Assembly (NCBI GenBank): GCA_023144005.1
Contig: JAGLGN010000014.1
Coordinates: 29,984-93,983, forward strand
Length of the DNA stretch: 64,000 nt
Reading direction: 5' to 3'
From: a bacterium
GTDB taxonomy: Bacteria; AUK180
In this document: in pieces, positions 51,960 to 62,555 of the stretch
How the letters are laid out: every line of letters begins with the position of its first letter
How positions within the stretch are numbered: position 1 is the first letter of the stretch
Notes under the pieces: generated by a model
Seen by the model: the letters and a program-made list of their open reading frames with translations, nothing else
What the model was told of the DNA's origin: nothing
Database searches by the model: none
Made by a program: the position numbers and the translations under genes

Positions 51960-53015
51960 TCAATCTATAAGTATTCTCGGAAGAGAGCTTATGAACTGCT
52001 CAAAATAATTTCTTTTGAAAAGGGCGCTGGGTGCAGCGCCTTTTATCTTATATTCAAGTTCAAAAAGAAGCTGCAATTGTTTTTTAAAGGCCTTTGATGA
52101 AAGCTTTTTTACATTGCTGATGATCTCTCTTTTCTTTTTATAGGGTGCGTTGAAGGTATTTGAAACCGCATATTCGTCAGCGCCGCTGCTGAGCTTTCCC
52201 TTGATGGAGAGATTCCTTTTATAGGACCACCACAGCCTGCTGATCAGCATAACTTCCCAGCCGGACGCGGATTCTTCCACTATGCGACTGAGATATGTAT
52301 GAGCAGCTGTCTTATTACAAAACAGAGCTGCATCACAAAAATCAAAAACGGAAATGATCCTAAAATCTCCCACGCATTCATTTACATCAGATAGCTCTAT
52401 CTGATCTTTCTCCCCTACGAATAAGGATAGTTTCTCCGCTTCTTTCTTGATCGAGTCCAATGTTCCGTCGGTAGAATTAATAAGCATCGAGCAAACGGAT
52501 TGTGATATTTTTTTATCCTTCTCGCCAAAGAATTTCTCGATCCATTTCTCGATATCTCTGGCATCCAGGGCGTATGCCATGAAATGCGCCGCGGTTTTGG
52601 AAGAGGTGAGCTTTCGATAATTTTTCGTCCAGGCCGCTCCGCCCGAAAGGTCAACTCTTCCCTGAGAAATAATCACGGCAATCGTTTCATTATTGCCTGT
52701 GATCCATCCGGAAGAAGAGAGCACATCCAGTATTTCGCCCTTTATCTTGCCGGAGAACTCCGAAAAATAGCTGACTACCACCATCCTTCTGGAAAAAAGG
52801 CTTGCTTGGCAGAGATGTGTCTCAAATGTCTTACCGTCTTCCCAATTGGCCGGAGTGATCTCCTGATACGAGAACGGATCTTTGTTCTCGCCCAATACCT
52901 GCTTTCTTATTTCCTCGAGCGCCAATTTTTTTATGTAATATTCTTCACCGTCCAGGATATACAGGGCAGTGTTTTTGTTAAATACGGAACCCGGGTTTTT
53001 TAATGTTGTGCTCAT
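51960..53015 (-). CDS. holA: DNA polymerase III delta subunit
   Basis: LYILDGEE, SLFSRRMVVV, EAEKLSLF; convergent with rpsT as in many bacteria. Confidence 0.88.
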   Translation of the reverse strand: MSTTLKNPGSVFNKNTALYILDGEEYYIKKLALEEIRKQVLGENKDPFSYQEITPANWEDGKTFETHLCQASLFSRRMVVVSYFSEFSGKIKGEILDVLSSSGWITGNNETIAVIISQGRVDLSGGAAWTKNYRKLTSSKTAAHFMAYALDARDIEKWIEKFFGEKDKKISQSVCSMLINSTDGTLDSIKKEAEKLSLFVGEKDQIELSDVNECVGDFRIISVFDFCDAALFCNKTAAHTYLSRIVEESASGWEVMLISRLWWSYKRNLSIKGKLSSGADEYAVSNTFNAPYKKKREIISNVKKLSSKAFKKQLQLLFELEYKIKGAAPSALFKRNYFEQFISSLPRILID

Positions 53016-53776
53016 CTTCTAAATGTGAACTCCGTGTCAGAATACTTTCCGAATGCCAGCTCTTGTGCCTGTGCTAATTCCTCTTTCGACAGATCTGATG
53101 ACTCCGCTTCAAATGCTGGGGAAAGGGCCGAGATCACAGAGTTCTGAATAACTTCCGCGGTAAGCTCCCTGCCGGTCAATTCATTTATCCCCTTCACTGA
53201 TGCCCGCATCGATTCTTCGGGCAGACCGTATATATCGCTCCATAGGGGATAATCAACATCCAGGATCACCGAGCCGTGCTGAAGGAATTTGCCCTTTGAC
53301 CTATACTGGGCGCTGCCGATGACCTTATGGCCTTTTATCGTTATTTCATAGAGGGACGGGGAATCAAAACAATTCTCAGAAGAAGAGCGCTGTTCTCCGC
53401 CGGAGATCTCCATGTCAATGCCCAGGGACGAAAAAGCGGACTGGAAGATCCTGGAGATAGCGCCGTATGTATCTTGAAGGTCAAGTGACGCAAATACATC
53501 GTCATAGCCTCCGACAAGAGAATAAGTAAGTTCTAAATGATGAATGACCCCTCTACCGCCGGTCATCCTGCGGACGATCGCGACATCATCCCTCTCCTTG
53601 AGTGAATGAAATCTCTTTGAGCTTTGAAAATAGCCCATAGACAGGGTGGGGATCTCCCAGGTATAGAACCGCATTACGGGAAGCTTTTCCTCATTATATG
53701 AGAGAAAAAGCATTTCATCGATCCCCATGTTCAGGATCCCGGAGTATTCTCTACTCTTCAGTATCCTGATCTTCAT
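53012..53776 (-). CDS. Lipoate-protein ligase / octanoyltransferase (LplA/LipM-like, catalytic domain only)
   Basis: [44 protein letters not shown]; start reassigned to 53776. Confidence 0.9.
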
Positions 53777-60864: not shown

Positions 60865-62555
60865 ATATGAATTCTCCTTATACTTTTGTTAAGTTCCACT
60901 GCCGCGCGGTCAAATGATGCGACACGCAGTCCGATTTCTCTGAAGCGGGAAATATTTTCGCGCCTTTTTTTAACAATACCGAACCCTTGATCCGCTGCCA
61001 GCCATCTGTTCGGAAAAAGCGCTATGGGCGGGTTTCCTCTGTCTATTTCTCTTCGTATCTCATCAAAGAGCGGATCGTCTCCCGATAGGCCCGCTAATTG
61101 AAATGCGATGCTGTCATCGGTCACGGGGATCACTATAGTATCATAGCTATCCTTCTTATTCGAGGGCAAAGTCGAATAATAACACTCGCCTGTTTCAAAA
61201 GAACAATCCGCAAGCTCATTGGAAATGAAAATATTGACCCTATTTCCCGAATCCCGCAATGCCTTTGTCAGAAAATAAATATCCTGCCGATAATCCGCCG
61301 GGGAAAAGAGGAAAACATCAAATTCCTGATCGGAAATATCCAGCTTGATATTCTCTGTCTCTGTTATCAACTCTCCCAGAAAGCTCTTTCCGAAGAGGGT
61401 ACGGTTAACACCAAGCATATGCGCGGCGGTTTGCCCTATATCAGCAAAACTCTCCCGTAGGCCCAGGTCAACGCCTCGGCGTAGATTCTGTCCGTAAACC
61501 ATTACCGGAACATACTCTCTTGTGTGATCAGATCCCTTGAATGTCGGATCATTCCCGTGATCTGCGGTCAGGATAAGAACATCGGCGGGTTCCATGAATC
61601 CGAGTATTTCGGGAAGTTTTTCGTCAAATTCCTGCAGGGCGCGATAATACCCTTCGACATCTCTTCTATGCCCGTATTTCATATCAAAATCAACAAGATT
61701 TACCATAATGATGCCGTTTTCCACATTATCATCGGGTAATTTTTTTCTGATCGCGCGGATAGTCGTTTCTATTCCCTCAAGATTACTCTTGGTGTGAATT
61801 GCCGTTGACAGACCTTTTCCGGCATAAAGATCCTCTATTTTACCTATTCCGAGAACAGAGAGTCCGGCAATGAGGCAATTATCCAGAACGGTGTTCTCTG
61901 GCGGAGACGCTGAAAAATCTCTTCTATTCGCGGTCCTTGTGAACCCGTTCTTCTCATCTCCTATAAATGGCCGCGCTATTATCCTGCCGACCAGATCTTT
62001 TCCGCTTAGTATGTTTCGCGCGATCCGGCACCATCGGTAAAGCGTATCAAGTGGAATGATTTCCTCGTGAGCGGCTAATTGGAAAACAGAATCACCGGAA
62101 GTATATACAATGGGAAAACCGGTTCTTACATGTTCTTCTCCCAGGTCATTGATAATAGCGGTCCCTGATGCCGGATAATTCCCCAGCACCTCTGAAGAGA
62201 TCATTTTTTTGAATTCTTCAAGTATTCTGGGGGGGAAGCCCTCAGGGTATAGGGGGAAAGGTTCTAATCTGGCGAGTCCGGCCAATTCCCAATGGCCGGA
62301 AGTGGAATCCTTCCCTGCTGATATCTCTTGTGCTTTACCGTAAGAAGAAAAACAGTACTTCTGCGGAGGAATGCCATCCGGGGCGGGAAGAATATTTCCA
62401 AAGCCCATCATTTCCAGATTTTTCAAGGTATTCGGATATTCTCTGGCGATATGATAGAGCGTATTAACACCCGTATCTCCATATTGAGCAGAATCCGGGG
62501 CATCACCGACGCCAAGGGAGTCAAGTATCATAATAATGACTCTTTTAATATCCAT
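60861..62555 (-). CDS. deoB: Phosphopentomutase with C-terminal flavoprotein-like extension
   Basis: ILDSLGVG, GKDSTSGHWE, NLVDFD..YGHRRD, TADHGNDP, DHTREYVP; extra region of about 165 aa. Confidence 0.93.
   Translation of the reverse strand: MDIKRVIIMILDSLGVGDAPDSAQYGDTGVNTLYHIAREYPNTLKNLEMMGFGNILPAPDGIPPQKYCFSSYGKAQEISAGKDSTSGHWELAGLARLEPFPLYPEGFPPRILEEFKKMISSEVLGNYPASGTAIINDLGEEHVRTGFPIVYTSGDSVFQLAAHEEIIPLDTLYRWCRIARNILSGKDLVGRIIARPFIGDEKNGFTRTANRRDFSASPPENTVLDNCLIAGLSVLGIGKIEDLYAGKGLSTAIHTKSNLEGIETTIRAIRKKLPDDNVENGIIMVNLVDFDMKYGHRRDVEGYYRALQEFDEKLPEILGFMEPADVLILTADHGNDPTFKGSDHTREYVPVMVYGQNLRRGVDLGLRESFADIGQTAAHMLGVNRTLFGKSFLGELITETENIKLDISDQEFDVFLFSPADYRQDIYFLTKALRDSGNRVNIFISNELADCSFETGECYYSTLPSNKKDSYDTIVIPVTDDSIAFQLAGLSGDDPLFDEIRREIDRGNPPIALFPNRWLAADQGFGIVKKRRENISRFREIGLRVASFDRAAVELNKSIRRIHI

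Follow-up and report, generated by a model that had tools for sequence, protein, structure and literature searches.

A conserved deoB–ade operon with a UgpB-branch importer and a Cache chemoreceptor: a candidate module for feeding on nucleic-acid fragments

Here we examine an eight-gene cluster in a bacterial DNA stretch of 64,000 nt (the window, by which we mean the whole stretch that was analysed: positions 29,984 to 93,983 of contig JAGLGN010000014.1, assembly GCA_023144005.1, lineage AUK180). The cluster joins genes for a phosphopentomutase (deoB) and an adenine deaminase (ade) to those for two permeases and a substrate-binding protein (SBP) of an ATP-binding cassette (ABC) importer of the CUT1 family, a methyl-accepting chemotaxis protein (MCP), an LplA-like ligase (lplA) and the DNA polymerase III delta subunit (holA; Table 1). 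We read it, at a probability of about 0.5, as an operon for feeding on phosphate-bearing fragments of nucleic acid, in which a Cache chemoreceptor is co-expressed.

All eight genes lie where an earlier note on this DNA had placed them, co-oriented on the minus strand with overlaps or short gaps, and family models agree with the names it gave. By coordinates, the junctions from deoB to holA measure -4, 0, -4, +9, +11, -26 and -4 nt, the -26 nt between the MCP gene and lplA presuming an lplA start at 53776; the longest open reading frame (ORF) starts at 53956 and would give an overlap of 206 nt. Most likely the gene begins at the ATG at 53776, within the 3' end of the MCP gene; an overlap of these two genes recurs in relatives. 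Every NCBIfam match of the LplA-like protein is under its cut-off. Because a 396-nt gap follows holA, and then a strong promoter-like site (11/12 positions) ahead of the next gene, we take the operon to end there; apart from that site, promoter and terminator scans found nothing commoner than in shuffled sequence. No riboswitch or leader RNA was found 5' of deoB, where the region common to the divergent gene presumably holds the promoter, and an Rfam search at E <= 1 gave three sub-threshold chance matches, all elsewhere.

Four further genomes of the family and two of the same genus share the whole gene order, including an extended deoB, with some of these copies interrupted by contig ends. 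Proteins of the operon are 37–77% identical between the window and the four other family genomes, and the stretch from ade to lplA is kept even in a class-level relative (SBP 42%, MCP 37% identical). Since the same order recurs in the family and in the class-level relative, the arrangement is not a product of chance, and the objection foreseen in the earlier note, that the linkage might not be conserved, falls away. Near relatives are labelled in public records as Candidatus Atribacteria (same genus, 98% identical) and Candidatus Mcinerneyibacteriota (same class), and the 9.5 kb operon stretch was matched by cold-seep metagenome DNA runs only, with no RNA run among the matches. The eight genes are thus one conserved operon, of which lplA and holA are housekeeping passengers.

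Table 1. Features of the deoB–holA operon, in window coordinates.
Feature	Position	Strand	Basis
deoB, phosphopentomutase, 564 aa	60861..62555	-	NF003766 504 bits (cut-off 256); TIGR01696 449 (cut-off 341)
DeoB C-terminal extension, 169 residues (396-564)	60864..61370	-	HFCD/UbiX/CoaC-like flavoprotein fold predicted, AF2 model
ade, adenine deaminase, 573 aa	59143..60864	-	TIGR01178 645 bits (cut-off 472.5)
CUT1 permease, UgpA/MalF-like, 316 aa	58192..59142	-	BPD_transp_1; top NCBIfam match UgpA, 118 bits, under cut-off
CUT1 permease, UgpE/MalG-like, 480 aa	56753..58195	-	BPD_transp_1 residues 291-469; top NCBIfam match UgpE
Insert of UgpE-like permease, ~226 residues (40-265), after first membrane helix	57401-58078	-	beta-rich by eye
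Lipoprotein SBP, UgpB/dinucleotide-binding branch of CUT1, 423 aa	55472..56743	-	SBP_bac_8 138 bits plus SBP_bac_1; lipobox LFGC
MCP, 569 aa	53751..55460	-	Pfam HAMP + MCPsignal
MCP periplasmic sensor, residues ~40-182	54906-55343	-	AF2 model
LplA-like lipoate/octanoate ligase, catalytic domain only, 254 aa	53012..53776	-	Pfam LplA-B_cat 95 bits
holA, DNA polymerase III delta subunit, 351 aa, last operon gene	51960..53015	-	TIGR01128 154 bits (cut-off 80)
Intergenic region 5' of deoB, common to divergent gene; presumed promoter site	62556..62734	.	sequence reading

The operon encodes most parts of a CUT1 importer, namely MalF/UgpA-type and MalG/UgpE-type BPD_transp_1 permeases and a binding protein of the SBP_bac_1/8 families. 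The insert in the UgpE-like permease, which ends ahead of the second membrane helix, has no match in Pfam or the Atlas; it varies in length among relatives, whose versions of this permease run from 272 to 514 aa (E. coli UgpE has 281 aa). As had been noted, the cluster holds no ABC ATPase gene, and the orphan ATPase of UgpC/MsmX type that had been expected to serve it does exist, as a single genomic copy. The genome holding the window (2.67 Mb, 38 contigs, 96% complete) encodes only one MalK/UgpC-type ATPase (ABC_tran plus OB_MalK; 486 bits against the UgpC model NF008653, cut-off 432), on contig C34, where its gene adjoins an ORF with a Mur-ligase domain and no transporter. SBP_bac_8 proteins number only two in this genome, and no permease genes adjoin the gene of the second. 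Being the sole ATPase of its type, in a genome whose other SBP is without permeases, the C34 protein is the natural partner of the importer, and we infer that it acts in trans: the two permeases and the lipid-anchored SBP would form a CUT1 ABC importer that it energises.

What this importer carries is best approached through the SBP. Against the UgpB equivalog model NF008211 it scores 131 bits, where the cut-off is 411. Its top solved relative is the Thermus thermophilus protein of the 7C0F–7C19 series (E 2e-36, 128 bits, aligned residues 34–418), followed by E. coli UgpB (112 bits, E 2.5e-31), the marine UgpB 9LFF (108 bits) and Mycobacterium tuberculosis UgpB 6R1B (85 bits). Table S5 of PMC12718374 gives 7C0F, after Chandravanshi et al. 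(2021), as the uridylyl-3'-5'-phosphoguanosine (UpG, also U3G)-binding protein of a CUT1 transporter, and lists for it a pocket volume of 1291 Å3 against 315 Å3 in UgpB bound to sn-glycerol-3-phosphate (G3P). In UgpB and in the glycerophosphocholine (GPC)- and U3G-binding proteins, the phosphate is bound by two Tyr and two Ser, an arrangement not found in glucose binders; the vicinal hydroxyls are bound by a Gly/Glu/Arg set, and two Trp residues form a clamp around the glycerol (PMC12718374).

Aligned with the E. coli UgpB of the K-12 record, the SBP keeps the phosphate tetrad (Y42/S121/S247/Y323 of UgpB are its Y70/S146/S273/Y343) and the diol triad (E66 and R374 are E94 and R389; the conserved glycine is G305), and both sets are invariant across its clade. 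The glycerol clamp is half kept: the equivalent of W169 is present and the W172 position is Ala. Of four ligand positions readable from the Thermus point-mutant entries, two, the Ser and the Thr, are retained (S146, T272). Because the phosphate tetrad is kept, a phosphate-ester cargo is likelier than a plain nucleoside. Taken together, these findings suggest that the ligand would bear a phosphate ester and a diol and sit in a pocket roomier than that of UgpB, which points to nucleotides or dinucleotides; plain nucleosides or sugars would fit poorly, and G3P or its diesters would be compatible. The proposed cargo is accordingly worded as a phosphate-bearing fragment of extracellular nucleic acid, that is, a nucleotide, a dinucleotide or a very short oligonucleotide.

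A scan of one genome per species returned more than 500 relatives of the SBP, and gene context was read from the 80 best loci, each taken with 10 kb on either side. A tree was made of 91 SBP sequences, from which the Thermus 7C0F protein was left out; in it the operon SBP clade joins proteins 36–44% identical to it from Cloacimonadota, the Planctomycetota–Verrucomicrobiota–Chlamydiota (PVC) group, Fermentibacteria, Ozemobacter and others, with a Shimodaira–Hasegawa-like approximate likelihood ratio test (SH-aLRT) value of 80. This joint group is separate from Ugp-like loci of Proteobacteria that adjoin ugpC, from Paenibacillus loci and from E. coli UgpB; the SBP is a member of the UgpB branch of CUT1, which binds phosphate esters, but of a sub-clade distinct from UgpB, with a pocket that is probably larger. 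No closely similar ATPase gene adjoins the transporter genes of the joint group, the only matches being 29% identical and kilobases away.

It is the company these transporters keep in other lineages that provides the strongest new evidence for a nucleic-acid reading. A gene for an NrnA-like DHH/DHHA1 phosphoesterase directly follows the SBP gene in six loci of the joint group, and in three loci an endonuclease-like gene (DUF559/REase_MTES_1575) takes that place; four loci encode a PorV/FadL-like barrel together with secreted proteins that have lamin-tail (LTD), OB-fold or ComEA-type helix-hairpin-helix (HhH) domains and type IX secretion tails, and in one a metallo-beta-lactamase-fold gene lies upstream. 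Independent lineages therefore pair this transporter family with genes for binding or cutting nucleic acids, which matches the prediction that DNA serves as food. A role of that kind had been suggested for the operon alongside an uptake operon at 26–42 kb of the window, and these contexts, with the relationship to 7C0F, support it in part. By BLAST, proteins of the 26–42 kb operon match neighbours of the SBP in one of the loci (L007), namely the PorV–ComEA barrel at E 1e-16 and two LTD proteins at ~1e-8 and 8e-7.

Some of these loci deserve separate description. In L007 (G012:C23, 6654–18755), from an unrelated complete genome, the permease–permease–SBP genes are embedded among four others. 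Two of these encode an LTD protein that bears a type IX secretion tail and a Big_5/OB-fold protein of 1128 aa; the other two encode a PorV/FadL-like barrel and a protein of 848 aa that begins with a ComEA-type HhH domain. The gene set is of the same kind as that at 26–42 kb of the window. In L028 (12217–15921), from an uncultured bacterium, a 1234-aa dCache–PAS–histidine kinase–receiver–sigma-54 activator follows a permease–SBP–NrnA cluster and is a candidate regulator. Two loci of Cloacimonadota (Ca. Celaenobacter; L017, L023) carry the SBP homologue alone, without permease genes, near argS and a small gene that both also occur near the window operon (48201–49787 and 50156–50494), a hint of old synteny.

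The salvage enzymes fit such a cargo. The catalytic part of DeoB spans residues 3–395 (Pfam Metalloenzyme, residues 4–384), and Ade has the Pfam domains Amidohydro_1 and Adenine_deam_C. The substrates of the two enzymes, ribose-1-phosphate and adenine, are exactly both products of adenosine phosphorolysis. Elsewhere in the genome are genes for a PunA-type purine nucleoside phosphorylase, an MTAP-type phosphorylase and an NrnA-like DHH protein, and a Pfam match to the DeoC family. We infer the order import, nanoRNase with an assumed nucleotidase, phosphorylase, and then DeoB and Ade. Imported cargo would be cut to nucleosides and then to base and ribose-1-phosphate by enzymes encoded elsewhere, for which the NrnA-like DHH protein (as nanoRNase), an assumed nucleotidase and then the PunA-type or MTAP-type phosphorylase are candidates; DeoB would convert (deoxy)ribose-1-phosphate to the 5-phosphate, and Ade adenine to hypoxanthine.

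DeoB also carries a C-terminal extension with no Pfam match. Its AlphaFold2 (AF2) model has a predicted local distance difference test score (pLDDT) of 77 and a predicted template modelling score (pTM) of 0.78. In VIA-align the top 10 matches of the model are all HFCD-family chains (HFCD/UbiX/CoaC/EpiD/DpaB; Z 9.3–11.1), clearly over generic Rossmann matches, and Foldseek agrees on the fold at template modelling (TM) scores of 0.5–0.57; the Atlas lead is weak (0.85). At E <= 1e-10 a search of 1.84 billion representative proteins gave only three relatives, of which one is again a DeoB fusion. The extension is kept in orthologues of the family, and the region where an FMN-binding motif would lie reads IPVTDDS. 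It is, on the model, a lineage-specific domain with a predicted flavoprotein-like fold, and we know of no described phosphopentomutase with an HFCD-like C-terminal domain.

Turning to the chemoreceptor, the MCP consists of a first transmembrane helix, the periplasmic sensor, a second transmembrane helix, HAMP and the signalling domain. The periplasmic part has no Pfam match, and a word-indexed search for relatives of the sensor returned none besides the query protein. Its AF2 model (pLDDT 77) starts with a long helix and continues as a sheet of five strands, and VIA-align places it beside the WalK ectodomain (Z 13.3), CitA (12.6), formate sCache chemoreceptors (10.9), LuxQ (~9) and TlpB (8.1); the predicted fold is a single Cache/PDC domain. 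A Tar-type four-helix-bundle sensor was rejected, as Foldseek and VIA-align both give single PDC/Cache matches, and with it goes the earlier suggestion that this MCP works on the model of maltose-binding protein (MBP) and Tar, the sensor having no TarH bundle. SBP-dependent signalling through Cache-type sensors nevertheless has precedents in LuxP–LuxQ and AibA/AibB–TlpB, the last being a Helicobacter pylori receptor with an sCache_2 sensor that is reported to act through the SBPs AibA and AibB; in Halobacterium salinarum the transducer genes basT and cosT each come immediately after their SBP genes, basB and cosB, and where a bacterial SBP is known to act on a chemoreceptor, its gene accompanies a transporter and not the receptor (all PMC8050422).

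Two class-level genomes contain a second pairing, in which a paralogous SBP (~35% identical) directly follows a different MCP and precedes lnt; no permease gene was found on either of the short contigs that bear the pair. These orphan MCP–SBP–lnt pairs (L009, G007:C147, 2237–5166, with truA upstream; L010, G008:C77, 10135–12206) resemble a bacterial counterpart of the archaeal basB–basT. In a tree of signalling domains the MCP of the orphan pair is not sister to that of the operon. A single duplicated pair as the source of both was therefore rejected, and since the two MCPs are not sisters, the SBP–MCP pairing arose twice. The genome of the window has the same neighbourhood (L095, G000:C1, 2844–7545), in the order truA, an unnamed gene, the second SBP and lnt. 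That unnamed gene encodes a single-pass protein of 348 aa that matches no family and retains only a degenerate MCP hairpin-tip motif (YLNIQLEAIKKGDVADEFIVIGEELRQI); it may be a decayed chemoreceptor; BLAST gave no support to its being a sensor-only fragment of the orphan MCP.

Five MCPs are encoded in the genome, together with nine CheW-domain matches, three of which lie in CheA-sized frames (665–946 aa). Searches of the 96% complete genome found no flagellin and no FlhA, the flagellar export gate, so any movement steered by an MCP would be non-flagellar; of the taxis that had been proposed, the receptor is there and the flagellar route is not. PilB/PilT-type ATPases are many, and one is encoded beside Che genes on contig C19, where a frame with a CheW domain (10742–11128) holds an in-frame TAG. 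The MCP would feed one of three Che-like pathways, which probably acts on type IV pilus motility or on another process. Besides steered movement, control over pili or over something else would be just as possible.

Several points weigh against reading the operon as a feeding module for nucleic-acid fragments. The top NCBIfam names of all four transporter parts are Ugp (UgpA, UgpE, UgpB and, for an ATPase over its cut-off, UgpC), which leaves room for an ordinary Ugp-type importer of G3P or glycerophosphodiesters, taken up for phosphorus or lipid head-groups, with the other genes merely sharing a promoter. Such an importer would also account for the retention of the UgpB phosphate tetrad, diol triad and first Trp, and the operon demonstrably holds unrelated genes in lplA and holA. 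The margin of 7C0F over UgpB as a relative of the SBP is small (128 vs 112 bits), the Asn and Gln ligand positions of the Thermus protein are here S95 and S304, and the support for the joint clade is moderate. The NrnA-like, nuclease-like and DNA-binding neighbours occur in other phyla, outside the window operon, in loci chosen by their similarity to the query SBP, and the nucleoside phosphorylase is likewise encoded outside the operon. We still think a Ugp-type importer unlikely: the SBP falls far below the UgpB cut-off and has Ala for W172, its clade is separate both from E. coli UgpB and from the Ugp-like loci next to ugpC, no GDPD-type (UgpQ-type) glycerophosphodiesterase was found in the 96% complete genome, and across at least five lineages the neighbours are nucleic-acid genes, not glycerol genes. 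More improbable again is an importer of unphosphorylated nucleosides, pentoses or another sugar, with an MCP that senses the same compound. DeoB and Ade do act on products of nucleosides, CUT1 systems are mostly sugar importers, and several relatives of the SBP in the PDB bind oligosaccharides; however, known nucleoside ABC importers use Bmp-type SBPs and belong to the CUT2 family, and the Tyr/Ser set that holds phosphate, absent from glucose binders (PMC12718374), is invariant in the clade. The original proposal that the SBP brings in nucleosides or pentose phosphates accordingly keeps its link to nucleic acids, through 7C0F and the neighbouring genes, while the plain nucleoside becomes the less likely cargo, given the retained tetrad.

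The place of the MCP in a module for nucleic-acid fragments is a matter of its own. Linkage within this operon is weak evidence of shared function, since lplA and holA are as tightly linked and as conserved as the MCP gene without an evident tie to salvage or sensing; the operon brings together genes of unrelated function, and the presence of holA implies that it is expressed constitutively to some degree at least. That the MCP is unrelated to the transporter, using its Cache domain to sense some other small ligand directly and being carried along like lplA and holA, is an explanation we put only a little short of an even chance. Cache domains usually bind small ligands directly, as the single-Cache CitA and formate receptors do, and the sensor is poorly conserved within the family (33–42% identity, vs 61–71% for the SBP). 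That the genes of bacterial SBPs known to act on receptors accompany transporters and not receptors speaks for it too (PMC8050422). Set against this, SBP–MCP adjacency arose twice in the class, with non-sister MCPs and once without permease genes, the SBP-then-MCP order mirrors basB–basT, and the sCache_2 receptor TlpB is reported to work via AibA and AibB. The repeated pairing, together with the dCache sensor kinase at L028, favours a coupling of SBP to MCP. We lean slightly towards an operon MCP that reports on the same nutrient as the importer; whether it would do so through the ligand-loaded SBP or by sensing the nutrient directly, each route taken singly is doubtful, and equally so.

How bacteria feed on extracellular nucleic acids beyond the nuclease step is poorly mapped. 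Carriers for nucleosides are known; to our knowledge, importers of nucleotides or dinucleotides are almost undescribed. The Thermus UpG-binding protein is one structural precedent, and in the literature found its physiological setting is unclear. Here, the clade related to 7C0F adjoins genes for nanoRNases, nuclease-like proteins and DNA-binding surface proteins, and in the lineage of the window the SBP belongs to an operon for purine-nucleoside catabolism that has a candidate DNA-uptake operon 10 kb away. For sediment bacteria, the idea of 'DNA as food' thereby gains a concrete protein that can be tested and a proposed step at the inner membrane. A bacterial SBP-then-MCP pair, found twice independently, would suit the study of Cache signalling mediated by binding proteins. 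In the widest version, which we regard as unlikely, SBPs of this clade would serve an unrecognised family of dinucleotide or oligonucleotide importers in several candidate phyla (Cloacimonadota, Fermentibacteria, the PVC group, Ozemobacter and the lineage of the window), which would take over at the inner membrane once extracellular DNA has been captured and digested, and the SBP described here would in addition be a co-receptor of the MCP, steering non-flagellar movement or behaviour towards nucleic-acid debris.

Among known systems, phosphopentomutase genes are, as is generally known, likewise co-transcribed with nucleoside catabolism and uptake in E. coli deoCABD and in B. subtilis dra-nupC-pdp and drm-pupG. 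In contrast to these, the operon here lacks a nucleoside phosphorylase and an aldolase and has an adenine deaminase and an MCP, and its transporter is a UgpB-branch ABC system rather than the NupC of dra-nupC-pdp. With E. coli UgpBAEC it shares the four-part CUT1 architecture, the phosphate tetrad, the diol triad, the Trp169 equivalent and an ATPase that fits the UgpC model; it differs in SBP, UgpA and UgpE scores far under the equivalog cut-offs, in the loss of Trp172, in the order of genes (permeases, then SBP), in the large periplasmic insert of the second permease and in the absence of ugpC and ugpQ from the cluster. That insert recalls the P2 loop of MalF, yet sits in the other, UgpE/MalG-like permease. 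The Thermus 7C0F protein has the same UgpB-branch SBP fold family, phosphate-binding Tyr/Ser set and Ser and Thr ligand positions, whereas its Asn and Gln positions are both Ser here. As for sensing, the SBP gene of the window precedes the MCP gene as in basB–basT and cosB–cosT, and the single Cache-type sensor is like that of TlpB and unlike the four-helix bundle of MBP–Tar. Unlike the bacterial SBP–receptor examples, in which the SBP gene is found with the transporter only, the SBP gene here adjoins both transporter and MCP. The operon is thus a variation on two things already known, a CUT1 importer of the UgpB branch and a receptor associated with a binding protein, rather than a new kind of system.

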